Part shown: piece by piece, positions 17,408 to 61,711 of the stretch
Numbering within the stretch: position 1 is the stretch's first letter
How the letters are laid out: each line of letters opens with the position of its first letter
DNA from: a virus
Length of the DNA stretch: 64,000 bases
Reading direction: 5' to 3' (one strand)
IMG/VR virus record: IMGVR_UViG_3300042922_000850
Span: 32,001 to 96,000 of that record
Notes under the pieces: generated by a model
The model's input: the letters and a program-made list of their open reading frames with translations, nothing else
What the model was told of the DNA's origin: nothing
Databases searched by the model: none
Position numbers and translations under genes: made by a program

Positions 17408-17422
17408 GTATAAGAAATAAAA
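17408..17422 (+). promoter_or_regulatory. conserved motif GTATAAGAAATAAAA, overlapping a 20-bp inverted repeat (17358-17412)
   Basis: repeat copy upstream of the sigma factor gene. Confidence 0.7.
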
Positions 17423-17544
17423 GGATATGATAAAAATTATATCGTGTAAATAACTAAAGAGGACAATGCTCCCTTGGTTATTTTATTTAAGTGTTGTGGA
17501 AATACAAAAATAAAACTATCCGAGCATGGGAAGGGGAAATAGCA

Positions 17545-18150
17545 ATGAGCGAAAAGGCAGATAGAAACAGGGATCTTATCATAAGGGCAAAGGAGGGTGA
17601 CGCGAAGGCACTGAATGAACTCTTCAGAATTAACGAAGGATTTAGCAGAAGCGTAGCAAAAAGATACTTAAACACTGGGATAGAATTTGAAGAACTGGTT
17701 AGCATGTGTAAATTAGGGATGGTAAAAGCCTACAATTCTTTTGATCTGGAGAAAAATATTTCATTTATAACTTATGCGTCACCCTGTATGATGAACGAAA
17801 TTAGAATGGTTCTTAGACAAAAATCAACTCATACCGTAGACGCATTATCCGTTTCCATAGAGGCAGAAATAGATACGAATTTAGACGGGCACCCCATAAG
17901 TTATAGCGATGTTTTAGCTGACGACAGGATTGAAAGTAACGTTTGTGATTTATGTGTTCAGAGACAAGAGATTTTAGATATGAAAAAAATTATAGCCGAA
18001 TTGCCAGAAAAGGAACGCCTAATTATTACGAACATATGGTTTTACGGTAAAAAACAGAGAGAGGTATCAAATATTTTAGGGATATCTCAACCGCAAATTT
18101 GCAGACTGGAAAAGAAGGCTCTTCAAAAAATAAAAAGAAAATTAGAATAA
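17545..18150 (+). CDS. RNA polymerase sigma-70 family factor, sporulation (SigF/G/K)-like
   Basis: region 2 'EELVSMCKLGMVKAYNSFDLEKNISFITYASPCMMNEI'; region 4 'KQREVSNILGISQPQICRLEKKALQKIK'. Confidence 0.88.
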   Translation: MSEKADRNRDLIIRAKEGDAKALNELFRINEGFSRSVAKRYLNTGIEFEELVSMCKLGMVKAYNSFDLEKNISFITYASPCMMNEIRMVLRQKSTHTVDALSVSIEAEIDTNLDGHPISYSDVLADDRIESNVCDLCVQRQEILDMKKIIAELPEKERLIITNIWFYGKKQREVSNILGISQPQICRLEKKALQKIKRKLE

Positions 18151-18218
18151 TATAATTGTACTTAATACATTTATAGCTCATACTTTTATCGTATAAGAAA
18201 GAAAAGGAGACGATTGAT

Positions 18219-18368
18219 ATGAAGGAAGAGAAGCAAACAAACATAGGGTATAAAAAAATCCTGGCAGAGAGAGGATTAGAACAAAATTCAAAGAACATTA
18301 TGAAAGTCATGGTGGAGAGAGCGATGGGGATACACAAATTTATAAAGAAAAATAAAACAGATAAATAA
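18219..18368 (+). CDS. small cassette protein (49 aa, MKEEKQTNIG...NKTDK)
   Basis: manual ORF after motif at 18191-18205 and AAGGAG RBS. Confidence 0.6.
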   Translation: MKEEKQTNIGYKKILAERGLEQNSKNIMKVMVERAMGIHKFIKKNKTDK

Positions 18369-18413
18369 AACACAGGGGCATATGCCCCTGTGTTTTATTT
18401 ATCTGTTTTATTT
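18350..18413. terminator. 64-bp perfect palindrome / bidirectional terminator (core GGGGCATATGCCCC)
   Basis: exact self-complementarity including the ends of both converging ORFs. Confidence 0.85.
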
Positions 18414-19258
18414 AATTCATTGATCGTATCTTTAAAGATTGGTCTATTCTCCTTCACTACCGATCTCTGGAGCTTATTCCCTAGGTTCTTATTGTAAACC
18501 CCGCTCTCTCCATAATTTAATCCAAGTTCCTTGTATCCATCAAGTTCTCCGGTGACACCCCTCATTTTTTTCATATATTCTTTTGTGGCTTTTGGCGCTA
18601 TTGCGGTATCAGCGGATTCATTTAAAATAACCTTTGGACTAATATGGGAGCTGGTGTCAGCCATAGGTACTCGCTGATCTTTATAAGCGATGGAAGACCT
18701 TTTACTTTTGAGGAGGTTTGATCCATGGTTTATCTCGTTTGCTTCGTGGCGATTGATAATTGCTTCCGTAAACTTTCTGTCAGTGGGGTTTTCAAAAGAC
18801 TTTAGATCGGCCCCCATTCCCTTTAATGTCTTCGTCAACTTATTAATGTCGCCCTTGTGAGCAAATCCACCACCATGTGCCCCAAGCATTGACTGAAAGC
18901 CTCCACCAGCTTCAAAAGCATCTTTCAGGTCTTGTCTATAGTCTTCTGGGTCTCCTCCAACCGATTTAATTTGATCCATAAAAAATTTCCTCGATTTTAC
19001 AGAACTAATAGCTCTATCAGCCATGTCATCAGGTGTAAACCCAGAAACGGATTTTGCACCCTTGCTCTTTAAGATATTTTCAGTCCCCTTGTTTAACCCG
19101 GCCAACTCTTTCTCATGATTTAAAACGCCACTACTCATTAGCCGATTAACCGATTTGTCGGAAAGACCGCCTACAACCTTTTTCCATGCTCTTGCCATGG
19201 CGCTTTTCTGCATTGCCTCTTTGTAAATTATGTCTTCGTAATATGCTACTTTATCCAT
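18395..19258 (-). CDS. MDKVA-tagged protein with HExxE motif (paralog of 62582-63547)
   Basis: MDKVAYYEDIIYKEA; RHEANE...HISPKVILNES. Confidence 0.6.
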   Translation of the reverse strand: MDKVAYYEDIIYKEAMQKSAMARAWKKVVGGLSDKSVNRLMSSGVLNHEKELAGLNKGTENILKSKGAKSVSGFTPDDMADRAISSVKSRKFFMDQIKSVGGDPEDYRQDLKDAFEAGGGFQSMLGAHGGGFAHKGDINKLTKTLKGMGADLKSFENPTDRKFTEAIINRHEANEINHGSNLLKSKRSSIAYKDQRVPMADTSSHISPKVILNESADTAIAPKATKEYMKKMRGVTGELDGYKELGLNYGESGVYNKNLGNKLQRSVVKENRPIFKDTINELNKTDK

Positions 19259-19271
19259 AGAACCTCCTGCT

Positions 19272-23839: not shown

Positions 23840-23886
23840 GTATAAGTAATAAAAGGAAGAATCGTATTACTTCCTTTTATTACTTA
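23840..23886 (+). promoter_or_regulatory. conserved motif plus 17-bp inverted repeat leader
   Basis: TAAGTAATAAAAGGAAG-N10-CTTCCTTTTATTACTTA. Confidence 0.75.
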
Positions 23887-23902: not shown

Positions 23903-24265
23903 ATGTCGGAAGATCACAAAGCTGATCATTCCACGATTTGTTTTTGGTGTGGTACCGTGGTAGAAAAAAAGAAGATTATTAACACAGGCGATAAACACCC
24001 CCTAATGGTAATTGATTATGCGCCATGCGAGCAATGTATTGAGAAAAGAAGTAAAGGTGTAACATTTATCGAGTTCTCAGAAATCCCAAATGTTGTGGGA
24101 CAGGCGGAATTACAACCTGGTATATATCCGACAGGATCGTGGGCAGTTATGACTGAGGAAGCGGTAAGAAAATTTATGCGTCCAGAGGCGGCGCAAGATG
24201 CAATCCAAAAAAGTTTTTGTTTTTTGGACAAAGCTACTTGGAATTTATTAGGATTTAACTTATAA
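23903..24265 (+). CDS. hypothetical CxxC-containing protein
   Basis: 120 aa; RBS AAGGAG. Confidence 0.65.
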   Translation: MSEDHKADHSTICFWCGTVVEKKKIINTGDKHPLMVIDYAPCEQCIEKRSKGVTFIEFSEIPNVVGQAELQPGIYPTGSWAVMTEEAVRKFMRPEAAQDAIQKSFCFLDKATWNLLGFNL

Positions 24266-24285
24266 TAATAGGAGGACAAACTAAA

Positions 24286-24528: not shown

Positions 24529-24554
24529 CTTAATAATTGGGGGTGTAGTAACAA

Positions 24555-24842: not shown

Positions 24843-24946
24843 ACCTTTTGTGGTAATGTCTACATAATTAAAACATCAAATAGATGCGCTGGTAATCAAC
24901 GTGTCTATTTTTTTATTTATCTTTTTTTAAAAGAAAGGAAGAAAAC

Positions 24947-25498: not shown

Positions 25499-25515
25499 TT
25501 TAAAGAGGTGATGAT

Positions 25516-26908: not shown

Positions 26909-26941
26909 TAAAAACACATATGAAAGACGAGAGGAAATAAT

Positions 26942-27529: not shown

Positions 27530-27534
27530 CCTAT

Positions 27535-27765: not shown

Positions 27766-27768
27766 CAT

Positions 27769-29641: not shown

Positions 29642-29642
29642 A

Positions 29643-30588: not shown

Positions 30589-30631
30589 GTATAAGAAATA
30601 AAAGGAAATTGACTTTCCTTTTATTTCTTAT
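30589..30631 (+). promoter_or_regulatory. conserved motif plus 18-bp inverted repeat leader
   Basis: ATAAGAAATAAAAGGAAA-TTGAC-TTTCCTTTTATTTCTTAT. Confidence 0.75.
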
Positions 30632-34205: not shown

Positions 34206-34248
34206 GTATAAGTAAGAAAAGAGGGAATAATATTATTCCCTCTTTTCT
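34206..34248 (+). promoter_or_regulatory. conserved motif plus 34-bp perfect palindrome leader
   Basis: GTATAAGTAAGAAAA overlapping AGAAAAGAGGGAATAAT|ATTATTCCCTCTTTTCT. Confidence 0.75.
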
Positions 34249-34270
34249 AAATAATCATGGGAGGAATGTT

Positions 34271-39337: not shown

Positions 39338-39385
39338 GTATAAGTAATAAAAGGAAGATATCGATATCTTCCTTTTATTACTTAT
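39338..39385 (+). promoter_or_regulatory. conserved motif overlapping a 46-bp perfect palindrome
   Basis: ATAAGTAATAAAAGGAAGATATC|GATATCTTCCTTTTATTACTTAT. Confidence 0.75.
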
Positions 39386-45137: not shown

Positions 45138-45219
45138 GTTTTAGAGGGGCAATTGCCCCTCTAAACTTTCCTCCCATTTCTTGTATAAGTAATAAAAGAA
45201 ATGGGAGGATAAAAATAAA

Positions 45220-45609
45220 ATGGCAATAAGTGATAAGGAAATAGCATTTGTAGCAATGAACGGAATAGCATTAACAGTAATGGGGCTGATAACAGCATAT
45301 ACAACAAAGAGGTTATCTGAAGAAAAGATAAAAAATATAAAGAAAGGGCAAGAAGTTGAGACACTGAAGACAAATCTTAATAAAATGGAAGATTTTATGG
45401 AATGGGAAATTAGTTACATGGAGGATAAAATAAATCTAAATATGATTCAGCTTAGATCAGTGGATATGTATCGATTTGCAGAAAGAGAATTGAAAGAAAT
45501 TAAAGGAGTAACAGAGGTATACGCAAAAGAAGAATTATTAGCAGGAATACGACAGAGAGTGAATACAATTAGAACATTATTAAATAGTGACGAGGAGGCA
45601 ACAAAATAA
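45220..45609 (+). CDS. single-TM coiled-coil cassette protein
   Basis: 129 aa; purine-loaded. Confidence 0.65.
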   Translation: MAISDKEIAFVAMNGIALTVMGLITAYTTKRLSEEKIKNIKKGQEVETLKTNLNKMEDFMEWEISYMEDKINLNMIQLRSVDMYRFAERELKEIKGVTEVYAKEELLAGIRQRVNTIRTLLNSDEEATK

Positions 45610-46184
45610 TGAAAATTAGAATGTCAGCAAAGGATTTAGAGAGATTGAGTAATTTAAAAGAGCAGTTAGACAGGGATGTGCATGAATTGGAAATAATAGA
45701 CAATATGGAAGAAAAAGCAGATTTACAAGATAGTATTGAACGCACAAAAAATGTAATCAAAGGAATAAAAGAAGAACCGATAAGAAATATAATTATTATC
45801 GCGGGCGTGGTAAGCGTTGTAATAGGAACAGGTATTATTGTGTCGGAAATATATAAGTTACACAAGAAAATTCGGAAGATAGATACGATGAAGGTGGCAG
45901 AGAACATTTTAGCAGAGAAGGCTAAATTAGAAACAGAACTGGAAGAAGTAATAGAGAATGAAATTGTAAGTGAAGAGATTGAAGAGATAATTGGAAATGA
46001 TGCGGAGGAAGAATTCGCAGTAAGCGAAGTAGTAGCAGAAGATATTAAACAGACGGAGCCAGATGTAAAAGAAGCATTTGAACAGGAGGTTATAAACGCA
46101 GAGGAGCAGAGAAGCAAGAAGTTAGGTGATTTCGGAGAAAGATTAGCTAAAAAGAGAGACAAAATGAAAGCAAAGAAAGCATAG
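45609..46184 (+). CDS. single-TM acidic coiled-coil cassette protein
   Basis: 191 aa; purine-loaded. Confidence 0.65.
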   Translation: MKIRMSAKDLERLSNLKEQLDRDVHELEIIDNMEEKADLQDSIERTKNVIKGIKEEPIRNIIIIAGVVSVVIGTGIIVSEIYKLHKKIRKIDTMKVAENILAEKAKLETELEEVIENEIVSEEIEEIIGNDAEEEFAVSEVVAEDIKQTEPDVKEAFEQEVINAEEQRSKKLGDFGERLAKKRDKMKAKKA

Positions 46185-46269
46185 ATTTAGAGGGGCAATT
46201 GCCCCTCTAAACTTCCCTTCCATTTCTTGTATAAGAGATAAAATATAAACAATAAAGGAGGAATTAGTT

Positions 46270-47112
46270 ATGAGAACAAAAATGAGATTAGTAATTTTAG
46301 CAATGGTAATGGTATTAACGGGGTTACAATCAACAACAGCATTTGCTGAGACAGTGATTTACGGAGAGCGTGTTGAAGAAACAATGTATGACATTGGACT
46401 ATGTGTGAGACTTAGTGAGACAGATATTACACTTAAATATCTTAACAGAAGTGGTCGAGAATTAGATCACATGTTGGAAAAAATGTTTGAACCAACAGGA
46501 ATTAGTAACATGAATATTGGCGTATCAGAAGAAATAGATTATTATACATTAAAGCTATGGCAAATGTCATGGGATGTCGAAACATATGACTATTATGACG
46601 GGTATTACACAGTCAATCTTTATCTGGAATACAGGGAAACAGCAGATGAAACAGCATTTGTAATTCAAAAAGTAAAAGAGTTTGTTCGAGCAAATAAGAA
46701 AAAAGTAGCCGGACTTTCAGATGCAGAGAAATACAGATGGATTTATGATCACCTTATTAACAATATGGATTATGATTATACAGAAGAAAATGATTCATGC
46801 TATGAGGCAATAACGTACGGAACAGGTACATGTGTAGCATACTCAGGATTATACTATCTGATTGCAGTAAATATGGGATTACCATGTAAAATAGTGTACG
46901 GCAAAGCAGGAGGCGGAGATCACGCATGGAATTTAGCAAGGTTAGATGGAAAATGGTATTACGTAGATGCAACGTGGGGCGATGATTATAGTGAGGAATA
47001 TTTCATGAGAGCAAAAAAGAATGTAACTACACATAAAATTAACGAAGAAGCAGCATCAAACAGTATTGATGAGAACGGAGTAATTGTATTTGCAAGGGAA
47101 GATTACAGATAA
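46270..47112 (+). CDS. secreted transglutaminase-like cysteine protease
   Basis: signal peptide; GTCVAYS, HAWN, YYVDATW triad motifs. Confidence 0.85.
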   Translation: MRTKMRLVILAMVMVLTGLQSTTAFAETVIYGERVEETMYDIGLCVRLSETDITLKYLNRSGRELDHMLEKMFEPTGISNMNIGVSEEIDYYTLKLWQMSWDVETYDYYDGYYTVNLYLEYRETADETAFVIQKVKEFVRANKKKVAGLSDAEKYRWIYDHLINNMDYDYTEENDSCYEAITYGTGTCVAYSGLYYLIAVNMGLPCKIVYGKAGGGDHAWNLARLDGKWYYVDATWGDDYSEEYFMRAKKNVTTHKINEEAASNSIDENGVIVFAREDYR

Positions 47113-53100: not shown

Positions 53101-53186
53101 CAAAACCCTTCATCTTTGACCTAGCATTTTAACTTTACCTCTTTTCCAGTATAAGAGATAAAACAAAACACAGGAGGAATAAAATT

Positions 53187-53381
53187 ATGAGACAAATAAG
53201 TAAAAAGACAATGGCAAAGTTAGACATTGTATCCGGAGTAATAGAAGTAACAGTGGGAGTTTTAGGAATGGTTACATTGGGAAAATCACCAAAGAGTTTG
53301 ATTGCAGCAGCATCATTGGTATTTGGAGCAGCAAATGTATGCTTTGGCATAGACGAAGCAGTGGAAGCAGCACAGGAATAA
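53187..53381 (+). CDS. small two-TM cassette protein
   Basis: 64 aa; AGGAGG RBS. Confidence 0.7.
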   Translation: MRQISKKTMAKLDIVSGVIEVTVGVLGMVTLGKSPKSLIAAASLVFGAANVCFGIDEAVEAAQE

Positions 53382-53527
53382 ACACAAGGATAGAGAAACA
53401 AAAGGACATATGTCCTTTTGTTTCCGTTTCAACCACGCCCACCACGTTGTTAATGATATCCGATGCCCAGCTTTATTCCTGCTGTTTTTCTAGTATAAGA
53501 GATAAAACAAAACACAGGAGGAATAAA

Positions 53528-53752
53528 ATGAAAACAATAAAAACAATAATCGCATTTTTAAAGATAATAGGAAAGGTATTATTTAGTACAAGAGAAGAAA
53601 AAGAAAATATGAAATCAGTATTGAAAGCATATAACGATGCAGTACAGTCATATATGAAAGAAAATAATGTGAGTAGGGAAGTAGCAGAAGATGAAATGAA
53701 TGCAAGACTTCAGCGAGAAGCAATGAAAATGGAAAACAAGACAAGAGCGTAA
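53528..53752 (+). CDS. small cassette protein (MKTIKTII...), family with 57802 and 59349
   Basis: AGGAGG RBS; shared Y..YM....V.R..AE motif. Confidence 0.7.
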   Translation: MKTIKTIIAFLKIIGKVLFSTREEKENMKSVLKAYNDAVQSYMKENNVSREVAEDEMNARLQREAMKMENKTRA

Positions 53753-53870
53753 GGCTCTTGTCTTTCGCTTCAACCACGCCCACCACGTTGTCAAGGACAT
53801 CAGGTGTCCAGTTTTATTCTCGTCGTTTTTCTAGTATAAGAGATAAAATAAACAAATGGAGGAATTAAAA

Positions 53871-54164
53871 ATGGGTATGAGTATGGCAGGAAGAATTGTT
53901 GTATTAACAGAAAACGGAGCATTTGCAGTAGAAGAAGTAAAAGTTAAGGTTATAGAAGAATCAAGACAGTTTATAGTAAAGGAATGGGATGATACATTAA
54001 GTAAAGTAACAGCGTATGTAAGAGAAGATGGTTATGTAGATATGATTTACGAAGACGGGGTATGTCACACAGTAAATAAGGTATATTTTGAATCAATAGC
54101 ATTTGAAGGTGAGCTTGAAAATCAGAAGCAGATGGCAATAGAAGCAAAATTAATCAAAGCATAA
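53871..54164 (+). CDS. hypothetical cassette protein (MGMSMAG...)
   Basis: GGAGG RBS. Confidence 0.7.
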   Translation: MGMSMAGRIVVLTENGAFAVEEVKVKVIEESRQFIVKEWDDTLSKVTAYVREDGYVDMIYEDGVCHTVNKVYFESIAFEGELENQKQMAIEAKLIKA

Positions 54165-54316
54165 ACAAAAGGGAGCGAAAGCTCCCTGTGTCTTTTTCCT
54201 TTACCCCGTCCACCTCGTGCACGAGGTTCTCTCGGACATGCCGTGTCCGTTTTATTCTCCATGTTTTTTTCCTATAAGAAAGAAAATAAAACAGAAAGAT
54301 AAAGAGGTAAGAGATT

Positions 54317-54535
54317 ATGAAAAAAGTAATGAAGGCAACAGTAATAGGATTAGGAATATTTATGATGGGAATGTATAGTTATGAAAGAGGAGTAAAGGAT
54401 ACAAAGGAAATATATGAAAAGGTATTAAGTAATCGAAACGAAGAATTAAATCAATTATTCAAAGAGGTATTGGATGAAAAGAATGAGAAAATTAGAGCAT
54501 TGAAAGCAGAAATATATAGGATGTCAGAGGCGTAA
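54317..54535 (+). CDS. single-TM coiled-coil cassette protein
   Basis: 72 aa; GAGGT RBS. Confidence 0.7.
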   Translation: MKKVMKATVIGLGIFMMGMYSYERGVKDTKEIYEKVLSNRNEELNQLFKEVLDEKNEKIRALKAEIYRMSEA

Positions 54536-54664
54536 GCCTCGCATCTTTTTCTTCCAATGCTCTAATTTTCTCCGCTCACCATGCTGACCGGACATCCCAT
54601 GTCCACTTTATTCTCCCTGTTTTTCTCCTATAAGAAAGAAAACAATATTAGGAGGTAACACAAA

Positions 54665-54952
54665 ATGAAATTAGAAGAGTTCGGAATACAGGCAGTATTG
54701 GAAGTAAAAAGAATTAGAGTAACACCATGTTATGAAAGTAAATGGGAAATTATGTTAAAGTTAGATGACAGTGAAAAGGTATATGGGGAAAATATAAAAA
54801 ATCACGGGTATGTAGAAATATATAAAGGAAAGGCAATCGTAGGGCTAACGAGGTTAGACACTGAAACACAGGAAAAAATGGAAGATTTGGTACATATGTG
54901 TAAAACGGTAAAAGAAGTATGTGATTTATATTTTGAGGTTTATTATGACTAA
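54665..54952 (+). CDS. hypothetical cassette protein
   Basis: 95 aa; AGGAGGT RBS. Confidence 0.7.
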   Translation: MKLEEFGIQAVLEVKRIRVTPCYESKWEIMLKLDDSEKVYGENIKNHGYVEIYKGKAIVGLTRLDTETQEKMEDLVHMCKTVKEVCDLYFEVYYD

Positions 54953-55031
54953 GGGCATTTGCCCTTAGTTTTATTTTCCCTATTTTCCACGTATAAGTAA
55001 GAAAATAAACAAAAGAAAGAAGGAATAAATT

Positions 55032-55541
55032 ATGAAATCAAGCATTAAGATAGTAGGAGCAACAACGGTAACAGCAACAGTGGCATTAGTAATTGGAATG
55101 ATGGCAAAGAGAAAAGTGAATCATCGAAGAAAAGAGAAAGAAGGATATTTATTAAAAGAATATTATGAGCACGGATATAGTGAAGGGCATAAGGACGGAT
55201 ACGAAGAGGGACAGCAGAAAATGGAGATTAAACCGGAGAAAACGGGAAGAAGTTATAGTTATGAGAAGTTCATGGACACTTTAAGAAGAAGTGAAGCAGG
55301 TGAGTTTGATTACACCGGATGGAAGATGGTAACATCGGAACAGTCAGGATTTGACAGAAATTATTACAACGGAAGAGTTGTATGGGGATATGATGGAGCA
55401 CCAGATGATGAGTTTTACTTCACAGTAGTAACAGAAGATGGGCACAACGCAAGGATAGTAAGCGTTATGAGAGCAGATGGAACAGAAATCAATTATGATG
55501 AATCATTTATTGTACAGTATTTTATACTGAGAACGTTTTAA
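55032..55541 (+). CDS. single-TM cassette protein with GYxxGxxDG repeats
   Basis: 169 aa. Confidence 0.7.
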   Translation: MKSSIKIVGATTVTATVALVIGMMAKRKVNHRRKEKEGYLLKEYYEHGYSEGHKDGYEEGQQKMEIKPEKTGRSYSYEKFMDTLRRSEAGEFDYTGWKMVTSEQSGFDRNYYNGRVVWGYDGAPDDEFYFTVVTEDGHNARIVSVMRADGTEINYDESFIVQYFILRTF

Positions 55542-55624
55542 ACAAGAGGGAGCGAAAGCTCCCTTAAACTTTTCTCTTTTTCTCCTATAAGTAAGAAAAC
55601 AACGAAAGAGAGGATTTAAAGATT

Positions 55625-55846
55625 ATGGACAACGATAAAGTAATTAAAGAATGTAACATTGAAAGACAAACAGGATTTGCGGCAGAAAACAAAGTAAACG
55701 TAGTTTACGAGGACGGAATGGCAGAGAAGATATTAAATTATTACCCGGATGAATTATCATTCAGCGAAGAAGAATTTATAGGATTAACGAAGCAGCAGGC
55801 GAAGGATTTATTCCATAAAAAAGACATAGCATATTTACAAAGCTAA
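55625..55846 (+). CDS. hypothetical cassette protein (YYPDELSF motif)
   Basis: 73 aa. Confidence 0.7.
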   Translation: MDNDKVIKECNIERQTGFAAENKVNVVYEDGMAEKILNYYPDELSFSEEEFIGLTKQQAKDLFHKKDIAYLQS

Positions 55847-55891: not shown

Positions 55892-56809
55892 TCAGGCTTT
55901 TCTTGGAGATTTGTCAAAGAATATCGATCGCTTCGTATACGGGGTGACTTTGTGAACTCCGATATAATCTTGATTGGGATTTATAATTCTCTCTATTCTG
56001 TTCTTTTCTCCAAGTATCTCGGATTCTTTAATTGCTGCGGCAACATCATTATTTAACAACGGATAATGAGTCTCTTTATATCGCTGTAATTTATCATAAA
56101 TCTCCGGAGACCGCTTTGATCCTTGTTCTAAGTGTGTTAACTGTCTCTTTTTTGTTAAGTCCCCAGAAACTCCGTTATAACGAGAGATCCCACCCGACAT
56201 ATCAGTTATAAGATGGTTCCTTTTTGGGAATGCCAAGTTTTTCGGAAGGACATCTGATACTTTAATATTTTTTGGCAAATACTTACGAGAATGCTCATCT
56301 GTAATGCGGCGAATTTCTTTAATCTTCTTTTGATTTTTTGGTGTATCTCCAATTTCCTCAATCTCACCTACTATTCTATCAACAGTTCTCATCTCTTGTA
56401 GCTCTTTAATTTTACGCTCACCCTCATTAATAGGATGAGTGTGTAGATTTGAATAAGTGGAGTTATTGTTAATACGTGAATCCACTCTATGCTCTCTGAC
56501 CGGACCCGTTTTAATAGCCTTTACTTCACCTTTGTCTATCAGGGCAGCCAATTCTGTTTCACTTGGGAGTTTACGAGAAGTACTTTTTATTTTTTGATAT
56601 GCATTATTAGAAACATCTCCAAGCCCCATTTTTGCCTCAGCAAGCTCTCTTCCCGCTAACGCATTACCCTTTCTATCTCTTAGTTTGCGAAGTGCCCACT
56701 TCCAATTACCATCTGGGACTAAGCGAACCTTTTTTGCAATCTCATGGGCTTTACTTGCGGTTAAGGCCTCTTTATATATTTCGTTCTCATAATGAACCAC
56801 TTTATCCAC
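55892..56809 (-). CDS. tagged basic protein (MDKVVHYENEIYKEA...), HTHP motif
   Basis: GTG start at 56809 after AAGGAG and TGaTATAAT (56838-56846); NLHTHP. Confidence 0.65.
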   Translation of the reverse strand: MDKVVHYENEIYKEALTASKAHEIAKKVRLVPDGNWKWALRKLRDRKGNALAGRELAEAKMGLGDVSNNAYQKIKSTSRKLPSETELAALIDKGEVKAIKTGPVREHRVDSRINNNSTYSNLHTHPINEGERKIKELQEMRTVDRIVGEIEEIGDTPKNQKKIKEIRRITDEHSRKYLPKNIKVSDVLPKNLAFPKRNHLITDMSGGISRYNGVSGDLTKKRQLTHLEQGSKRSPEIYDKLQRYKETHYPLLNNDVAAAIKESEILGEKNRIERIINPNQDYIGVHKVTPYTKRSIFFDKSPRKA

Positions 56810-56953
56810 GCCAACCACGCTCCTTCCTTTTGTAGTAATTATATCACAAACCTGTCGACCACGCACACCACGTTTTTCTGGTATAAGTAATAAAAGGAGG
56901 ATGTTAATGCCTTCTTTTGTAATCGACACAATAACAGAAAGGAGGGGCAGTTA

Positions 56954-57109
56954 ATGAATACCTCAATCAAAATAACTATTAAAGTACTTGGTTTTGTACC
57001 ATCGGTGTTTTTGAATTTAGCTTTGATATCTGCGGGTACAGGGGTAGCGCTAAGTGCTGGGAAAAACTTGGTAACGATATGTTCTAATGTAATGAAGACA
57101 GAGTTATAG
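56954..57109 (+). CDS. small hydrophobic protein (51 aa)
   Basis: manual ORF; AAGGAGG RBS. Confidence 0.55.
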   Translation: MNTSIKITIKVLGFVPSVFLNLALISAGTGVALSAGKNLVTICSNVMKTEL

Positions 57110-57215
57110 CAGAGATATAGCAAGGAAGACAGAGTGGCAGTGCCACTCTGTCTTCACCATTATACCGCTTTTATCTGGTATAAGTAATAAAATAAAGAGA
57201 ATGGAGAATTTGATC

Positions 57216-57413
57216 ATGGAAGAGAAATTATACACAGAACAAGAAGTAATCGAGCATATGATAAGAGCAGTTAAGACTTATAAGGATGGGATAACCCTTG
57301 GCAGAAAAGAGGGAGCAGTAATAGGTATAGTAATTGGGGTGGTATTAGTAGCATCAATAGAAATTGGGAATGCGATTAGCCGAATGAAAGCTAAGAAGGA
57401 GGCAGAGGCGTAA
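57216..57413 (+). CDS. single-TM cassette protein
   Basis: GGAG RBS; GAVIGIVIGVVL. Confidence 0.65.
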   Translation: MEEKLYTEQEVIEHMIRAVKTYKDGITLGRKEGAVIGIVIGVVLVASIEIGNAISRMKAKKEAEA

Positions 57414-57485
57414 GCCTCTACTCTTTATTTTCTACTATTTTCTGGTACAAGAGATAAAATAAAGAGAATAGAGGAGAAATTAACT

Positions 57486-57632
57486 ATGGGAGCAAAAATC
57501 AGGATGGCAATAAGAACAATTGAAGCAATACAAGCAATGGGAGCAGTAATAGTAGTTGCGGCAGCAGCATATGGTGTAGGTTATAAACAAGGACACGAAG
57601 ACGGGCGGAGACAAGGCGTTAGATATAGATAA
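57486..57632 (+). CDS. single-TM cassette protein (48 aa) with GYKQGHEDG
   Basis: manual ORF; GAGGAG RBS. Confidence 0.65.
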   Translation: MGAKIRMAIRTIEAIQAMGAVIVVAAAAYGVGYKQGHEDGRRQGVRYR

Positions 57633-57801
57633 ATAGATGATTAACAGGGTGAGGAGCAATAGGCTCCTCCTGTTATTTGTCTGACCACGCCCACCACGTG
57701 CGCGATGTTTACAGCATGGTTATAAACTGCTATAAATTCTTGTATAAGTAATAAAAGAAGAACAACAATGTTCTTCCAAATATATTTTATGGAGGGTTTT
57801 C

Positions 57802-58050
57802 ATGAAAAAAACCGCATTTTATTTTAATGTAATACGTATAAGGTTATTTGGCACAAAAGAAGAGAGAGAAGACGAAAGAAGAGTGAGAAATCTTTATAAT
57901 AATATGATAATCGGATATATGGAAAAAGAAGGGCTGAAGAGCAAGCGAAAGGCAGAACGGCAATTAATTAACAGTCTAGAATTTTCTGCTCAAGAGGCAA
58001 GGAAAAAACGCGAAGAACAACGAAAATTGTGGAGGAAAGGTAATGTTTAA
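57802..58050 (+). CDS. small protein, family with 53528
   Basis: LFGTKEERE...YNN.I.GYMEK. Confidence 0.65.
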   Translation: MKKTAFYFNVIRIRLFGTKEEREDERRVRNLYNNMIIGYMEKEGLKSKRKAERQLINSLEFSAQEARKKREEQRKLWRKGNV

Positions 58051-58247: not shown

Positions 58248-58356
58248 GTGTGTCACACTACCTAGTAAATATATAAGGGGAGTGTGACACACAGTATGTT
58301 GTCAACCGCATATGATTGCAAACCAAGCTTGCAATCATATGCGGTTGACAACATAC
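58248..58356. repeat. tandem hairpins: 12-bp IR (58248-58292) and perfect 28-bp IR with 7-nt loop (58294-58356)
   Basis: GTATGTTGTCAACCGCATATGATTGCAA-ACCAAGC-TTGCAATCATATGCGGTTGACAACATAC. Confidence 0.9.
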
Positions 58357-58426
58357 ACTATACCGGTCTTTAATTCACGCCCTTTTCTGGTACAAGAAAT
58401 AAAACAAACAATAGGAGGAAGATAAA

Positions 58427-58624
58427 ATGAAAATCGGAACAGTAGTAGTAATCAGTACATTAACAGCAGCATTAGGATTTACAATAGGCATATTTGTAGG
58501 CGCAGTAGCAGGTGCAATAGCAGTATCAGAAATAATAACAGATAAGGAAGATGAAGACAGCAACGAAAGTGAAAGCAGTAATGAAAGTGAAAGCAGTAAA
58601 GACGTCTTCTCATTCCTTGTATAA
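58427..58624 (+). CDS. single-TM cassette protein, acidic tail
   Basis: 65 aa; stop codon lies inside the next promoter motif. Confidence 0.65.
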   Translation: MKIGTVVVISTLTAALGFTIGIFVGAVAGAIAVSEIITDKEDEDSNESESSNESESSKDVFSFLV

Positions 58625-58655
58625 GTAATAAAATAAAGAGAAAGGAGAGAGTATT

Positions 58656-58856
58656 ATGCAAAGCAGTATTACAATAGACGGCGGAGTTAATTTAGAAGCA
58701 CAAGAGATTAAAATAAGTAATATAGAAGGAAAGGCTGTCATTGAAATTGGAGCAATAAAAACAATTTTAGACGAAGGGGAATCTATTACAATCAAGTGTC
58801 AACAGGGGTTGCAATCATTAGAAATAGGGGATTTTGTCGTAGCATCAAAACAGTGA
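58656..58856 (+). CDS. hypothetical cassette protein
   Basis: 66 aa; AAGGAG RBS. Confidence 0.65.
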   Translation: MQSSITIDGGVNLEAQEIKISNIEGKAVIEIGAIKTILDEGESITIKCQQGLQSLEIGDFVVASKQ

Positions 58857-58932
58857 TAGTGAAGAGGGGTTAAACCCCCTCTTCTTTCCTCGTATAAGTA
58901 ATAAAATAAAGAACGCAGAGGAGGAAGAATAT

Positions 58933-59136
58933 ATGGATTTAACAGCAGTGATAGCAAGAGTAAGAGCAGATGGTCACACTATAAGAGAGACAGAAAGTAC
59001 ATATCAGTTTTATGCAAATGACGAGTATATTAAATCGTTAGAAGTAAGAGGATTATTAGTGAAGGGAGATTGTCATAAGATAAGGAATAGCACATTTAGG
59101 CTATACAAAGAAAAATGGTACAAAAGGGCAAAGTAA
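58933..59136 (+). CDS. hypothetical cassette protein
   Basis: 67 aa; GAGGAGG RBS. Confidence 0.65.
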   Translation: MDLTAVIARVRADGHTIRETESTYQFYANDEYIKSLEVRGLLVKGDCHKIRNSTFRLYKEKWYKRAK

Positions 59137-59217
59137 TTGCCCTTTTGTCTCTTCTCTCATAAAATCCTTTATCTTATTGTATAAGTAATAAAATAAGAGA
59201 AAGGAGGTAATTTATAT

Positions 59218-59346
59218 ATGAAAGATAAGATAAAGGATTTAAGTACGGCAATGATGATAGTCATTACAGTAGGAGCAGCAGTTATAGCTGGAGCAATTGT
59301 ATTAGTTATATCTCGAATTAGAGATGCGATTAAGGGGAGACTTTAA
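59218..59346 (+). CDS. single-TM peptide (42 aa)
   Basis: manual ORF; AAGGAGGT RBS. Confidence 0.6.
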   Translation: MKDKIKDLSTAMMIVITVGAAVIAGAIVLVISRIRDAIKGRL

Positions 59347-59348
59347 TT

Positions 59349-59549
59349 ATGATGGTATTGATCGGGAGGATATTTAAAAACGTATTTGGCAAGAAAATGC
59401 AAGTAGATGATGTACAAGTTTTAGTTGAGGACCATGATGAAATAGTCTATCAATATATGAAGACTAATAAAGTAGATAGAGCAGCCGCAGAGAAGGAAGT
59501 AAACAAAATGATATTGGACTTAAAGGTAGTGAGAGAAAAGAGAGGTTAA
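59349..59549 (+). CDS. small protein, family with 53528
   Basis: IVYQYMKTNKVDRAAAEKEVN. Confidence 0.6.
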   Translation: MMVLIGRIFKNVFGKKMQVDDVQVLVEDHDEIVYQYMKTNKVDRAAAEKEVNKMILDLKVVREKRG

Positions 59550-59628
59550 AACCTCTCTTTCACTATCATCTGGTATAAGTTATAAAACAAGAGAAGTCTT
59601 GTTATTTTATTTTTAAGGAGGTAAGGTT

Positions 59629-59847
59629 ATGTCCAACCCAATTAGGGACTGTGCAAATGCCCATAAGCGCACGGGAGAAATGTTAAATGATTTTCTTTAT
59701 GAAGATGGAAAACCATTATTGAAAGGAGGTAAACCGGGTGTGCGTAAGGACCATACAAAAGAAGAATTAGAACAGATGCTAGAAGGGATATTAATAAGTT
59801 CTTTTGAAAATTATAATGATATTGCGAATGAACTTGGCTGGGAATGA
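59629..59847 (+). CDS. hypothetical protein
   Basis: 72 aa; AAGGAGGT RBS. Confidence 0.6.
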   Translation: MSNPIRDCANAHKRTGEMLNDFLYEDGKPLLKGGKPGVRKDHTKEELEQMLEGILISSFENYNDIANELGWE

Positions 59848-59868
59848 TTTATATTAAGGAGGAGAAAG

Positions 59869-60201
59869 ATGAGCAACCAGAAGAAAAGATATTTTATCAT
59901 CACAATAATAGCACTTGTAGCTGTTATTGCAGGAGGCACTATTTTTAATAGCCGACTATTAGGTTCTATCGGATTAACAGCTTATGTAATAAATGCCACA
60001 ATAGACCTTGTACTTGCTTTTAAAAGAGATGAATTAATTTCACTAAGAGACCTGAGAATTTACAAAGAGTTTTTTGTGGACAATAAAGGCGTTTACATCT
60101 CGGCGGTTCTAATGTTTATAATAACATTACTGACCCCTGTAGTAATGTATGCTTTCTTTATAATCATCTGGATAAATACGATCAAAGAGTTTATAGGTTA
60201 A
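59869..60201 (+). CDS. multi-TM membrane protein
   Basis: 110 aa hydrophobic. Confidence 0.65.
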   Translation: MSNQKKRYFIITIIALVAVIAGGTIFNSRLLGSIGLTAYVINATIDLVLAFKRDELISLRDLRIYKEFFVDNKGVYISAVLMFIITLLTPVVMYAFFIIIWINTIKEFIG

Positions 60202-60213
60202 GGAGGAAAGATT

Positions 60214-61104
60214 ATGGATTTATATTCAGTTGGACTAATGATTACTAAGCGGTGTAATTTCCATTGCGGGCATTGTATGTTTTCATGCAACGCAAAGGGT
60301 GACAATATGTCTGATGAGGTAATTAAAGCTGCAGGCTATTTTATTAGAGAAAATAACGTTGACCATGTAGCCATCTACGGCGGAGAACCATTTTTAAACA
60401 TCCCGCTCTTTGATAAAGTGCTTGACGAAGTTTATGATAGGGATATAGGATTTTTTGTGTCTACAAATGGGAGTTTTATGGGATCCAAGGCAAAAAGAGA
60501 GTATGTGTATAAACTGTTGTGTCGGATGAAAAACAATAGCTCTGAATTTACGGGCATCAGGGTATCAAACACCGTTTTTCATAATGCGTGTCGAACAGAA
60601 AAACAAAAGGCGTCTATCAAACAATTAAAATGGTGGATTAGTGATCCATATTCTTGGGTCGAAGATAATTATGACAGCTACGAAGAATGCTATGACGAAA
60701 ACCCTTTTGACTTTCCAAGGGGAAGGGGGTCATTATACATTGACCCGGAGAACGCGAGTGAAAAAATGAATCCTAGTGGGCGAGCTTTAAAACATGCTGA
60801 TATTCATGATAAAGCATGTCATTGTTCAATGACATGCAATACAAATGAGATTTATGACGAGTTTGAAATGAATATCAGTACGAACGGGGATATTTCAGTA
60901 TGTTGTTATTGCGACGGATGCGTTGTAGGAAATATACTAGAGGAAAATATTTGTCCAAGCGTAATATTCGAACGTACAAAGAAGCTGAATGAGTTTTTTA
61001 AAGAGAAGTATGATGTTCATCAAAAGACGAAGATGGTAGATATCTGCCAAATATGTAAGAAATACCGGATTGGACCAGATGGCATAAGAAAATATAGGAG
61101 GTAG
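60214..61104 (+). CDS. radical SAM protein with C-terminal Cys cluster (SPASM/twitch-like)
   Basis: CNFHCGHC, GGEPF, STNG; GDISVCC...GNI...CQIC. Confidence 0.87.
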   Translation: MDLYSVGLMITKRCNFHCGHCMFSCNAKGDNMSDEVIKAAGYFIRENNVDHVAIYGGEPFLNIPLFDKVLDEVYDRDIGFFVSTNGSFMGSKAKREYVYKLLCRMKNNSSEFTGIRVSNTVFHNACRTEKQKASIKQLKWWISDPYSWVEDNYDSYEECYDENPFDFPRGRGSLYIDPENASEKMNPSGRALKHADIHDKACHCSMTCNTNEIYDEFEMNISTNGDISVCCYCDGCVVGNILEENICPSVIFERTKKLNEFFKEKYDVHQKTKMVDICQICKKYRIGPDGIRKYRR

Positions 61105-61110
61105 TACATA

Positions 61111-61383
61111 GTGGCGATATACGAAATAACGATCACAAGAACAATTGAAGAGAAGCAAAAAATTTATGTTGAAAGCAGCACTGGGGTAATTCATAAGGTC
61201 CTCAGTAAACAAAATAATATCGACCAGAGTTTGGAGAGTTATGTTAAGAACGTTGGGAGAGAAATTGAAATATTAGATAAAGAGAAACCTAAGGTAAGAA
61301 AGCTCACAATGGGTTCAATATCACATTGGTGCAAACGAATTGGTCCAGGACAATATATTTGGAATGATGCACCGGGGAGGTAA
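61111..61383 (+). CDS. hypothetical protein
   Basis: 90 aa; AGGAGGT RBS. Confidence 0.6.
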   Translation: MAIYEITITRTIEEKQKIYVESSTGVIHKVLSKQNNIDQSLESYVKNVGREIEILDKEKPKVRKLTMGSISHWCKRIGPGQYIWNDAPGR

Positions 61384-61384
61384 T

Positions 61385-61597
61385 ATGACAAGAAAAGAAA
61401 TGTTTGTTAATTGGGCGGTAACTACTTCGGGTGTCTATTTTATAAATGTTATGATGTTTTCATTTACGAATGATATGATGGCCTTCAGAGCGATCAATCC
61501 CACCGCTTATACAGCTGTAGGCATAGGACAAATAATTGCCGATGTTATTTTAATAATAGCTCTTTCTCGTTATCTTTTTAAACGAAAGAGTAAATAA
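61385..61597 (+). CDS. small two-TM protein (MTRKEMF...)
   Basis: GGAGGT RBS. Confidence 0.6.
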   Translation: MTRKEMFVNWAVTTSGVYFINVMMFSFTNDMMAFRAINPTAYTAVGIGQIIADVILIIALSRYLFKRKSK

Positions 61598-61639
61598 AAA
61601 TTTTAGGAATAAAAATATTCTGGTATAAGAAAGAAAAGG

Positions 61640-61711
61640 AAAGCAGTAGCTCAGATGGGAGAGCACCAGTATTAATACTGAGGGTGGCAGGTTCGATACC
61701 TGTCTGCTTTT
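61640..61711 (+). tRNA. tRNA-like RNA / pseudo-tRNA with non-canonical anticodon arm
   Basis: acceptor AAAGCAG/CTGCTTT, T8A9, D arm GCTC-AGATGGGA-GAGC, T arm GCAGG-TTCGATA-CCTGT; anticodon arm CAGTATTAATACTG has no 7-nt loop; no encoded CCA. Confidence 0.7.

Follow-up and report, generated by a model that had tools for sequence, protein, structure and literature searches.

Leader hairpins and purine loading mark two classes of transcription unit behind one promoter motif in a phage genome

How can a single promoter motif head transcription units that differ both in the folding of their leaders and in the base composition of their genes? The question is raised by a 64-kb stretch of DNA (the window), part of a complete 166,758-bp phage genome with genes for a sigma factor and for an RNA polymerase whose beta and beta' subunits are fused. 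It had been proposed from the letters of this DNA that motif copies followed by a hairpin lead into genes of ordinary composition and that hairpin-less copies drive short purine-loaded genes, the two being mutually exclusive, and that the hairpin licenses read-through or stability (the original prediction). We derived a position weight matrix from the motif copies (consensus GTATAAGwAAkAAAA) and scanned it against both strands of the 166,758-bp genome, which gave 43 sites, all on the + strand, and 0 on the - strand at the same score. A pattern search found 22 matches in the window vs. 0.04 expected, and the copies number 31 in the window and 25 within 17408-61711, in agreement with the approximately 30 implied earlier. 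The motif is best read as the early promoter of the phage, heading two unit architectures (Table 1). It differs from the sigma-70 consensus in having no -35 element and an invariant G at the T of the -10 hexamer, and the late genes have a separate, TATAAT-type promoter and no wobble purine bias. At 61623 the start of a tRNA lies 16-17 nt past the first G of the motif, so that transcription would have to start at or before that point, and in one relative (G2, 46% GC) the Shine-Dalgarno starts at motif position 15; together these place the start at or before motif position 14-16, and transcription probably starts in the motif A-tract.

Genome-wide, class A comprises ~27 cassettes, each consisting of the promoter, a purine leader of 28-38 or 22-32 nt (purine runs in which AGGAGG lies near the 5' end), a strong Shine-Dalgarno, a single ORFan gene or, rarely, two, and an intrinsic terminator rich in GC; the genes have 35-190 codons, and many encode small single-pass membrane proteins. 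Class B comprises ~13 promoters, each followed by a hairpin ending in a T-rich tract, then a Shine-Dalgarno and 1-20 genes of ordinary composition. The foot of the hairpin's 5' arm is the promoter's own A-tract; stems start at motif positions 2-15 in 10 of the 13, with T-rich tracts after them, and at some promoters 19-49 nt separate hairpin and motif.

Table 1. Promoter motifs, leader hairpins, terminators and the units they accompany in the window. R3, third-position purine fraction; leader z scores are for folding begun at the motif A-tract.
Position	Strand	Feature	Unit or remark
8542..9124	+	Class A unit	Two small membrane-type ORFs, R3 0.72 and 0.80; within late gene block
10881..11254	+	Class A cassette	110 codons, R3 0.62
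17408..17445	+	Motif and small stem	Heads sigma-70-like gene 17545-18150, preceded by 130-nt structured leader; z -2.2
18191..18368	+	Class A cassette	49 codons, R3 0.78; amid - strand genes
23840..23886	+	Motif and palindromic hairpin, 17-nt arms, begun within motif	14-gene operon 23903-30556 (AbrB-like, SpoIIID, RNase H, SLT, deformylase, RadC)
24877-24912	+	Terminator-like hairpin and T-run	Between SpoIIID and RNase H genes; no motif after it
29112-29145	+	Perfect palindromic terminator	Next Shine-Dalgarno within ~10 nt
30589..30631	+	Motif and inverted repeat, 18-nt arms	7-gene unit 30646-34149
34150-34195		46-nt perfect palindromic terminator	Just upstream of 34206 motif
34206..34255	+	Motif and spacerless palindrome	11-gene unit 34271-39332, including ThyX
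35798-35831	+	Terminator-like hairpin after thyX	Shine-Dalgarno directly next
39338..39385	+	Motif and 46-nt perfect palindrome	16-gene unit 39403-45137
45183..47112	+	Two hairpin-less units; motifs 45183, 46229	45183: two genes, 129 and 191 codons, R3 0.72-0.76; 46229: 280-codon gene, R3 0.60, borderline
53149..55846	+	Seven class A cassettes; motifs 53149, 53493, 53834, 54272, 54628, 54991, 55585	Each with 28-38-nt purine leader, strong Shine-Dalgarno, GC-rich terminator and one ORFan (64-169 codons, R3 0.65-0.80)
56881..56920	+	Motif and marginal stem relying on G-U pairs	51-codon ORF 56954-57109; z -0.2
57178..57632	+	Two class A cassettes; motifs 57178, 57445	
57742..57776	+	Motif and 8-bp stem	ORF 57802-58050, purine-loaded (R3 0.675), an exception; z -1.4
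58390..59549	+	Four class A cassettes; motifs 58390, 58619, 58892, 59179	
59573..59603	+	Motif and 7-bp stem, then T-tract	5-gene unit 59629-61597 with radical-SAM gene; z -3.3
61623..61712	+	Motif leading directly into tRNA-Ile(AAU)	
61746..62552	+	Three class A cassettes; motifs 61746, 62057, 62334	
63653..64000	+	Class A cassette	Continues past window end

The long inverted repeats noted earlier were found in place (23843-23886, 30591-30631, 34208-34255 and 39340-39385, the last with perfect 23-nt arms and no spacer); the shorter stems are weaker, those at 59573 and 17408 folding more stably than that at 57742, and that at 56881 no better than chance. We found that, genome-wide, the folding energy (MFE) of the leader correlates with how purine-rich the first gene is (purine fraction, Spearman rho 0.75, p = 1.3e-8) and inversely with its C fraction (rho -0.74), as the original prediction requires. 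Under a strict single-hairpin definition, 10/13 hairpin promoters lead into ordinary-composition genes and 25/29 hairpin-less promoters into purine-loaded genes (Fisher p = 1.3e-4 genome-wide; p = 0.038 in the interval 17408-61711). The two-class pattern is real and unusual. The association is strong, but it is not the strict exclusion that had been claimed, with 3-4 exceptions each way, among them 56881 and 57742, which combine a stem with a purine-rich ORF, and 46229, which has neither; moreover, some of the exclusion follows from composition itself, as a hairpin requires a pyrimidine arm and class A bars pyrimidines from predicted start to stop. An unstructured leader is not an observation separate from a purine-rich ORF: both express one pyrimidine poverty that extends from the A-tract (the predicted start) to the stop codon. 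On the + strand, units of at least five genes all lie behind a hairpin or behind a small ORF and terminator; the statement that a hairpin precedes every long operon holds for 9/11 when the hairpin is strictly defined, the other two being 59573 and 98222.

The evidence supports purine loading in class A as working at the nucleotide level, with purines placed wherever the genetic code permits. At four-fold sites the share of purines is 85% in class A but only 56% for the remaining + strand genes and 50% for late genes (p = 4e-60), and in length-matched genes R3 is 0.69 in class A vs. 0.55. Class A genes prefer the codons AGR, TTR and AGY, and Pro and Cys are near absent (Pro, 0.6% vs. 3.1% of residues). 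The richness is limited to the stretch from leader through stop codon (leader 74%, CDS 67%, stop codon to next motif 38% purine), and class A folds less stably than class B (MFE of -10.2 vs. -16.5 per 100 nt). None of the 150-nt windows of class A has C>G (9.6% in class B, 16.5% in late genes), and on the class A antisense strand all of them do. The hand counts made earlier proved exact, both for 54317-54535 (11 C in 219 nt, CC/CT absent) and for 56954-57109 (20 C in 156 nt). NNY codons show no avoidance of C relative to T (0.314 vs. 0.319), and the strongest bias falls on the units least exposed to Rho, monocistrons of 150-600 nt.

The hairpins reported inside the long operons with no motif after them are real at all three sites (24877-24912, 29112-29145 and 35798-35831; Table 1). 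They leave no space for a promoter behind them, and a hairpin is conserved at the place of the first in the relative L029 (74% amino-acid identity), so read-through of terminators is structurally required. Control of immediate-early and delayed-early genes via terminators and antitermination is known from lambda N-nut and HK022 put, and the phage resembles these systems in having terminators after early promoters, regulators first and enzyme genes behind terminators, an order that needs read-through. It differs from them in that neither a conserved RNA of the boxA/boxB or put kind nor a recognisable antiterminator gene was found, and in that the hairpin lies at the very start of the transcript and resembles a terminator itself. 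Nothing shows that the hairpin licenses read-through: no loop, box, stem sequence or second stem is common to the class B hairpins, none of them matched an Rfam family, and neither a NusG-like gene, a NusG or KOW paralogue nor any other antiterminator candidate was found in the phage. The absence of a common loop or stem sequence fits a generic structure, not a protein-binding site. In their A-tract/stem/T-tract, perfect-palindrome style the class B hairpins match the clear terminators of the phage, which in any antitermination circuit would make them likelier a barrier than a licence.

Our best explanation, to which we assign a probability of roughly 0.4, is that the class B hairpins terminate or attenuate transcription close to the promoter and so divide immediate-early purine-loaded cassettes from read-through operons. 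Acting as + strand RNA, they would terminate or attenuate intrinsically and, once passed, would persist as 5'-terminal stem-loops. Together with the terminators after small first ORFs and those inside operons, they would split early transcription in two: an always-on part, formed by the class A cassettes and small ORFs as the immediate-early set, and a read-through part, formed by the replication and nucleotide-metabolism operons, with later or lower expression, the read-through being either a fixed leak or factor-dependent. Both the termination and the timing are predictions from sequence. In favour of this explanation are the T-rich tracts and terminator style of the hairpins, their lack of a common sequence, the internal terminators, the hairpins and small-ORF terminators of the relatives described below, and, subject to the bias of hairpin selection, the G-U pairs with which several stems fold only as + strand RNA. 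Purine loading would then be a trait of immediate-early units, whose mRNAs, pyrimidine-poor and almost structure-free, would be the target of no known Rho preference. When folding begins at the A-tract, however, the class B hairpins reach only -8.7 to -16 kcal/mol (z -1.4 to -3.3), which is weak and far below the class A cassette terminators in stability, and a consensus terminator scan of the + strand did not flag them. Several palindromes also pair motif positions 2-12, upstream of the predicted start, with pairing that covaries with variable motif positions, which RNA starting in the A-tract leaves unexplained; the long operons of G2 without any leader hairpin likewise count against this explanation, and a stem flush with the 5' end would equally fit a 5' stabiliser.

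Judged by sequence, the relatives show that the presence and position of the hairpin are conserved and that its sequence is not. The orthologous sigma and AbrB/SpoIIID promoters of L029 keep a hairpin at the A-tract with different sequence, the counterpart of the 17408 promoter carrying a 42-nt perfect palindrome. In orthologous operons of relatives a small ORF and terminator replace the hairpin: past the window end, at the hairpin promoter 86689, in G2 an ORF of 60 codons and then a canonical terminator stand between the promoter and the matching operon and leave no space for a second promoter, and the order promoter, ~60-codon membrane-protein ORF, terminator, operon recurs in G000, G1 and G2. 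Purine loading is weak in G1 and absent in G2, where hairpins stop short of the motif and the same promoter heads tight 7-11-gene operons (5 kb) with neither hairpin nor purine loading. Survival by one or the other, as had been proposed, is thus no rule of the promoter system.

The main rival, which we consider somewhat unlikely, is that the 5'-terminal stem-loops of class B shield long polycistronic mRNAs from 5'-end-dependent decay (RNase J1/RppH, in Firmicutes), and that class A mRNAs are protected by a ribosome on the strong Shine-Dalgarno within ~15 nt of the 5' end (polypurine/STAB-SD type). A stabilising stem must lie within a few nucleotides of the 5' end, and in ~10/13 the stems start 0-3 nt from the predicted start; the purine runs and 5'-proximal AGGAGG of class A leaders, and the conservation of hairpin presence and position but not sequence, also suit a stabiliser, as do the G-U pairs by which several stems fold only as + strand RNA, a feature biased by hairpin selection. 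However, the hairpins at 19-49 nt from the motif would leave a long free 5' end, G2 operons dispense with the hairpin, and a stabiliser explains neither the T-rich tracts past the stems, the perfect palindromy common to terminators and the pairing into motif positions 2-12, nor the replacement by a small ORF and terminator. Precedents in B. subtilis, cited in PMC3997798, are 5'-terminal stem-loops, STAB-SD and the polypurine stabiliser of phage SP82, one of these known cases coming from early RNA of a Bacillus phage. What they share with the phage leaders is either a stem right at the 5' end or, near that end, a strong Shine-Dalgarno rich in purines; those stabilisers concern the leader only, whereas the phage purine rule spans the whole CDS and reshapes amino-acid usage.

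The original prediction itself, that on all early units the same polymerase is vulnerable to Rho or RNase, from which class A escapes by purine loading and class B by its hairpin, we now regard as unlikely. In class B the leader hairpin would either produce a termination-resistant polymerase, like nut, put and LoaP leaders, or block RNase J. Its two classes, its nucleotide-level purine loading and its need for read-through at internal terminators stood, and the association of hairpin with composition (rho 0.75; Fisher p = 1.3e-4) and the C>G counts (0, 9.6% and 16.5%) speak for it; the hairpin as licence found no support. Since the late genes have another promoter type and unbiased wobble positions, the constraint could be specific to the motif promoter class. 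Purine bias as Rho protection is published for Firmicutes: in Bacilli it is ascribed to Rho avoidance under runaway transcription, in which the ribosome lags behind RNA polymerase (Dierksheide et al. 2026, PMC13323073). The phage shares with Bacilli a purine-rich sense strand, a pyrimidine-rich antisense strand and purine wobble in four-codon amino acids, although the Bacilli bias is genome-wide and mild (54% purine) and that of the phage is extreme (65-74%), confined to one class of short units in a genome otherwise without wobble purine bias, and the host of the phage may lack Rho. The shortest transcripts are the most biased; B. subtilis Rho requires >150 nt of pyrimidine-rich RNA, and both C and T count as Rho signals (PMC13323073). 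Against the prediction, too, even class B genes contain more purine (57-58%) than the genes of B. subtilis do (54%), C is not avoided relative to T, the hairpins have no common element, Rfam match or NusG/KOW partner, and the 5-kb operons of G2 have the same promoter and neither device.

Quite unlikely, in our view, is that the hairpins are insulators serving transcripts from outside the unit, a positional variant of T4-type PeSL cassettes. Together with the motif A-run, a U-run on the other strand, each hairpin would stop antisense or late transcription on the - strand as a canonical terminator. Where no terminator lies upstream, it would also terminate + strand transcripts reading through from the preceding operon or serve as a site for RNase III, for which arms of 17-23 bp are of sufficient length. 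Any stem begun by motif position 16 precedes a T-rich run on the - strand, the scan flagged 57777-57756 as a - strand terminator, and pairing of motif positions 2-12 makes sense only in RNAs crossing the promoter. The hairpins at 30589, 39338, 76374 and 92304 lie 5-32 nt past the previous gene with no upstream terminator; however, a strong upstream terminator is also present at 4/13 hairpin promoters, 23840 has no upstream + strand gene, the G-U pairs of several stems disfavour - strand RNA, and the restriction of hairpins to ordinary-composition units goes unexplained. PeSL stem-loops, at varied positions in or after the promoter, do act as terminators (PMC2839356). Highly improbable is a DNA-level element, with the palindromes as cruciforms or dimeric-regulator sites (e.g. 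AbrB-like/SpoIIID-like) that switch class B promoters: two spacerless perfect palindromes overlap the promoter core, the right arm covaries with variable motif positions, and the first class B operon opens with genes for AbrB-like and SpoIIID-like DNA-binding proteins, but the distance of the motif-like half-sites varies (37-42 bp), the inner arms are unrelated in sequence, spacerless perfect palindromes are the phage's general terminator style, several stems need G-T pairs, and G2 hairpins do not extend into the motif.

Among the closest known systems is the PeSL (promoter-early stem-loop) cassette of the T4-type phages RB49/phi1, in which a stem-loop that terminates or attenuates transcription may precede the promoter, lie within it or follow it closely (Arbiol et al. 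2010, PMC2839356). PeSL cassettes and the phage units are also alike in that small ORFans, in a plastic genome region, are bracketed by an early promoter that recurs, a terminating stem-loop and a Shine-Dalgarno. The promoter of this phage, unlike that of PeSL cassettes, is not of sigma-70 consensus, purine loading is not described for PeSL genes, and here the position of the stem-loop sorts with two compositional classes of gene.

A weight matrix built from the motif copies and run over the whole genome found 43 sites on the + strand and 0 on the - strand, with 31 copies in the window and 25 in the interval of the original prediction. The conserved core, GTATAAGwAAkAAAA, comprises the hexamer TATAAG followed by a conserved A-rich 9-mer and has an invariant G at the place where the -10 hexamer has T; no -35 element is conserved at the copies, and a scan with the sigma-70 consensus gave matches at shuffle level. 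The same motif, again on a single strand, occurs in two complete relatives (G1 and G2) and in L029, a closer 18-kb contig. Behind every copy come a Shine-Dalgarno sequence and a start codon, except at the one that stands directly before a tRNA-Ile carrying the anticodon AAU, which is unusual for bacteria. This tRNA, the only one in the genome (vs. 15 in G2 and 0 in G1), begins 16-17 nt after the first G of the motif, leaving almost no 5' leader for processing, and at one G2 copy the Shine-Dalgarno sequence begins at motif position 15; together these make motif position 14-16 the latest possible transcription start, and we infer that the start lies within the A-tract. At most - strand genes, in contrast, a TATAAT-type box stands 25-35 nt ahead of the start codon, so the motif marks a distinct early or middle promoter class, and the boxes suggest a second, late one. 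The cassette array on the + strand encloses two - strand genes with a near-identical box upstream, GTGATATAATTA.

The 166,758-bp phage genome is complete, with direct terminal repeats at its ends, and the window covers its bases 32001-96000. No near relative among cultured phages came up in megablast against phage records, and in tblastn with the phage polymerase the closest phage matches had just 24-33% identity; the helicase is 60-63% identical to those of G1 and G2, and amino-acid identity to L029 is 74%. Portal, terminase and tail genes form - strand blocks, and the fused RNA polymerase gene lies in this late/structural block, adjoining the portal gene. The + strand encodes a sigma-70-family protein, AbrB-like, SpoIIID, RNase H, ThyX, DNA polymerase III alpha and primase-like proteins, and many ORFans. 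The SpoIIID, AbrB-like and sigma genes point to a probable host among the low-GC, spore-forming Firmicutes.

Genes were called with a simple coding-potential and ribosome-binding-site model, and the promoters were tabulated one by one with the length and folding energy of the leader, the best hairpin and the composition of the downstream unit. Class A promoters, with all-purine leaders, have leaders of 28-38 nt with a folding energy of 0 kcal/mol, and the unit behind is one short gene (rarely two) closed by a GC-rich terminator; the cassette region holds 40 terminator-like sites vs. 11 expected. Hairpin-bearing leaders (class B) are 49-185 nt long, and all long operons stand behind these. The purine fraction of the first gene followed leader folding energy (rho = 0.75, p = 1.3e-8), as did its C fraction in the opposite sense (rho = -0.74), so the correlation that had been proposed from hand counts of C, which were themselves exact, holds on systematic computation. 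The classes had also been described as mutually exclusive; a strong association stands under a strict hairpin definition (10/3 vs. 4/25, Fisher p = 1.3e-4), but there are exceptions in both directions, and two of the stems originally listed, at 56881 and 57742, do not fold above chance. Synonymous codon choice is bimodal within one genome and one promoter class, and the split tracks transcription-unit architecture. Identical terminator hairpins recur at several cassette ends, consistent with cassette duplication or with recombination at shared promoter and terminator parts.

Base and residue composition by gene set (class A, n=29)
Measure	Class A	Other + strand genes	Late genes
Four-fold-site purine	85%	56%	50%
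Arg as AGR	85%	59%	63%
Leu as TTR	77%	51%	51%
Ser as AGY	58%	38%	37%
Pro share of residues	0.6%	3.1%	3.4%
Cys share of residues	0.6%	2.0%	0.6%
C/(C+T) in NNY codons	0.314	0.319	0.318

Class A genes avoid pyrimidines in general, with a preference for A, wherever a purine is permitted by the code, and do not avoid C as such; C-specific avoidance was rejected, because NNY codons carry no such signal. The gain at four-fold sites is borne by A-ending codons (71% vs. 39%), and the A:G ratio in Lys, Glu and Gln codons is unchanged. The third-position purine fraction (R3) is 0.69 in class A vs. 0.55 in length-matched class B genes, and the bias is limited to the transcribed stretch (74% in the leader and 67% in the CDS vs. 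38% in terminator and spacer), with pyrimidine-pyrimidine dinucleotides a further 13% below expectation. Folding energy per 100 nt is -10.2 in class A vs. -16.5 in class B; codon shuffles gave no sign of selection against RNA structure beyond composition (z = -0.2, not significant), so the low structure follows from composition alone. Many products are small single-pass membrane proteins, with Val, Ala, Ile and Gly replacing Leu and Phe in the helices. Neither G1 nor G2 has a homologue of any of the 29 genes, and one class A protein, searched among 5.8 billion proteins, matched only itself. Relaxed protein constraint in ORFans was rejected as the cause, since short class B genes, mostly without homologues too, have an R3 of 0.55, and it is also contradicted by the peak of the class A bias at four-fold sites. 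Translational selection for A-ending codons alone leaves unexplained the first-position purine fraction of 0.79, the AGR, TTR and AGY shifts and the loss of Pro and Cys. The purine loading of the immediate-early units may serve to avoid Rho or nucleases, to keep the mRNA structure-free and highly translated, or to economise on pyrimidine nucleotides. We found no description of gene-class-specific, code-deep purine loading tied to leader architecture in the literature searched.

The class B stem begins at motif positions 2-15 in 10 of 13 cases, with the promoter A-run as the foot of the 5' arm, so the 3' arm is T-rich; if transcription starts in the A-tract, about 10 of the 13 stems would be flush with the 5' end. 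Core stems span 5-11 bp and lead into T-rich runs (-8.7 to -16 kcal/mol when folded from the A-tract); they are weaker than the cassette terminators, and a consensus terminator scan flagged none of them on the + strand. Four of the stems are long palindromes, two of them perfect and spacer-free. Clear terminators of this phage are likewise spacer-free perfect palindromes with A- and T-tracts, so we rejected such palindromy as a special mark of the promoter hairpins and regard it as the general terminator style of the phage; that it commonly includes the loop centre hints at a palindrome-perfecting mutational process. One 64-nt example between convergent genes is probably a bidirectional terminator.

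Hairpin loops and inner stems share no sequence, the common part being the promoter-derived A-run and its complement. An Rfam scan matched no family to the hairpins, the tRNA being its sole match, and the genome encodes no NusG or KOW domain; proteins of the N or Q type may still be present, given their diversity and the lack of a Pfam match for most early genes. Several stems rely on G-U pairs, and the + strand RNA folds much better than the - strand RNA, a comparison biased by the hairpins having been picked on the + strand. Two leaders have a second predicted helix, in which the T-rich 3' arm pairs with the Shine-Dalgarno sequence instead; the arm could serve as an anti-Shine-Dalgarno segment if the 5' arm is untranscribed. 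That the hairpin replaces an absent upstream terminator is an insufficient account, as 4 of the 13 hairpin promoters have, in addition, a strong terminator upstream.

Positions of features (window coordinates unless stated)
Feature	Position	Strand	Remark
Fused RNA polymerase, 2301 aa	L002 (sequence handle):5094-11999; genome 25094-31999, immediately left of window	-	all bacterial beta and beta' Pfam domains in a single chain
Sigma-70-family gene	17545-18150	+
Perfect palindrome, 64 nt	18350-18413		between genes 18219-18368 (+) and 18395-19258 (-)
Other clear palindromic terminators	29112-29145; 34150-34195; repeated 45140/46186/47116 element
Leaders with alternative helix	30600-30645; 59584-59628
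ThyX homologue	34763-35776	+	337 aa
Identical terminator hairpins	45140-45165; 46186-46211; 47116-47137
Further identical terminator hairpins	54170-54187; 55547-55564; 55856-55873
Genes with near-identical upstream box	55892-56809; 62582-63547	-	box near 56850 and 63590
Inverted repeat	58294-58356		perfect 28-nt arms, 7-nt spacer
tRNA-Ile(AAU)	61639-61712	+	directly behind motif
Conserved small-ORF arrangement	L004 (sequence handle):14460-14700 (genome 130260-130500); G2 30068-30300 (reverse-complemented); G1 40818-41097
Structured RNA of G1	L022 (sequence handle):13237-13452 (G1 33237-33452)

The long operons had been noted to contain terminator-like hairpins with no motif behind them, and a second promoter at these places is now excluded as well: the internal terminators leave no space for one, and the TATAAT-type boxes of - strand genes are absent there. 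In L029, syntenic with window 12.4-30 kb, the sigma promoter and the AbrB/SpoIIID-operon promoter retain hairpins of different sequence whose start lies within or before the A-tract, and the terminator between SpoIIID and RNase H keeps its position with a different sequence. One hairpin promoter lies past the window, at window-scale 86689; ahead of the operon that it heads, G2 instead has a promoter and a 60-codon ORF, then a canonical terminator that leaves about 20 nt to the next Shine-Dalgarno sequence. The order promoter, ~60-codon single-pass membrane-protein ORF, terminator and operon is found at one orthologous operon in the present genome, G1 and G2, the ~60-aa proteins having no detectable mutual sequence similarity. 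Because promoter-proximal terminators recur before operons, read-through is a conserved need in this phage group, and the leader hairpin stands where the promoter-proximal terminator would be.

We therefore tentatively favour, at a probability of about 0.4, the reading that class B hairpins are promoter-proximal terminators or attenuators which divide an always-on immediate-early set from read-through operons. The class A cassettes and the small first ORFs would make up the always-on set, and the operons behind leader hairpins would be expressed through read-through of the hairpin. If so, a phage lineage that encodes its own fused beta-beta' RNA polymerase would have a lambda-like immediate-early/delayed-early switch. 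As with lambda nut, HK022 put and LoaP, downstream terminators need read-through (internally, and after the first ORF in all three genomes); unlike those systems, the leaders have no common RNA sequence or structure element.

The proposed hairpin roles are not mutually exclusive. That the hairpins are purely 5' stabilisers is rather doubtful: the flush stem position fits, as do known Bacillus elements, including the polypurine stabiliser of phage SP82 (cited in PMC3997798), but the terminator style of the hairpins and the "ORF plus terminator" equivalents in relatives do not. The original prediction, in which the hairpin licenses read-through or stability and hairpin-less units survive Rho by purine loading, is coherent with recent work tying purine bias to Rho and to transcription outpacing translation in Firmicutes (PMC13323073). 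We nevertheless judge it unlikely, since no common RNA element or factor was found and the strongest bias on the shortest transcripts is hard to reconcile with it; as a rule, moreover, "hairpin or purine loading" fails in G2 (46% GC), where hairpin-less promoters drive tight 7-11-gene operons and there is no purine-loaded class (4/194 genes with R3 >0.62 vs. 37/228 here). The leader/purine trend is weak in G1 (31% GC; rho = 0.39, p = 0.05). A related and also improbable reading would give early transcripts two alternative devices for immunity to host naked-RNA surveillance (Rho and/or 5'-dependent RNases), immediate-early mini-genes being kept nearly pyrimidine-free, with Pro and Cys dropped, and long operons receiving a generic 5' hairpin that would shield the polymerase or the RNA. 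The Rho-avoidance signature (purine at 85% of four-fold sites, no window with C>G and all antisense windows with C>G) is present in class A only. Were the immunity reading true, it would be the first gene-class-specific "purine code" combined with a sequence-independent leader device for antitermination or stabilisation, in one promoter regulon.

The long palindromes pair motif positions 2-12, and variable motif positions covary, a pairing unexplained by an RNA that begins in the A-tract; it could reflect RNAs crossing the promoter or palindrome-perfecting mutation. Hairpins as insulators or PeSL-like elements for RNAs arriving from outside the unit are quite improbable. The likeness to PeSLs lies in the many copies (43 here, on one strand) of one early promoter with stem-loop and Shine-Dalgarno sequence in intergenic gaps, with terminator hairpins upstream of the motif or hairpins downstream, and what bears here on the modular shuffling of ORFans by PeSLs is the absence of class A homologues in G1 and G2 and the reuse of terminator parts; the promoter here differs in lacking a sigma-70 consensus (no -35; TATAAG with invariant G). 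A DNA-level role is very improbable; a dimeric operator was rejected, as the spacing of the half-sites is not constant (37-42 bp) and the inner arms have unrelated sequences.

The component parts, PeSL-like early cassettes, 5' hairpins, terminators and purine bias, are all of known kinds. Bimodal purine use is a clean natural experiment on the purpose of purine bias, and reporter swaps could draw on matched promoters, ~27 naturally "recoded" genes and 13 hairpin leaders. Even if the pattern reflects expression level alone, it would be of practical use in designing small genes that are structure-free and highly expressed in low-GC hosts.

Three further features were observed. The ThyX homologue has an extra N-terminal region of ~150 aa with a second partial Thy1 match; duplication or extension of a flavin-dependent thymidylate synthase may have produced it. 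The gene-poor gap of 339 nt ahead of the 58390 promoter holds a long inverted repeat that, having no T-run, is not terminator-like. Finally, a candidate phage non-coding RNA lies behind a G1 motif promoter: ~200 nt without an ORF, highly structured and closed by a terminator just ahead of the next motif (MFE -83.6 for the 276 nt from the first motif up to the following gene).
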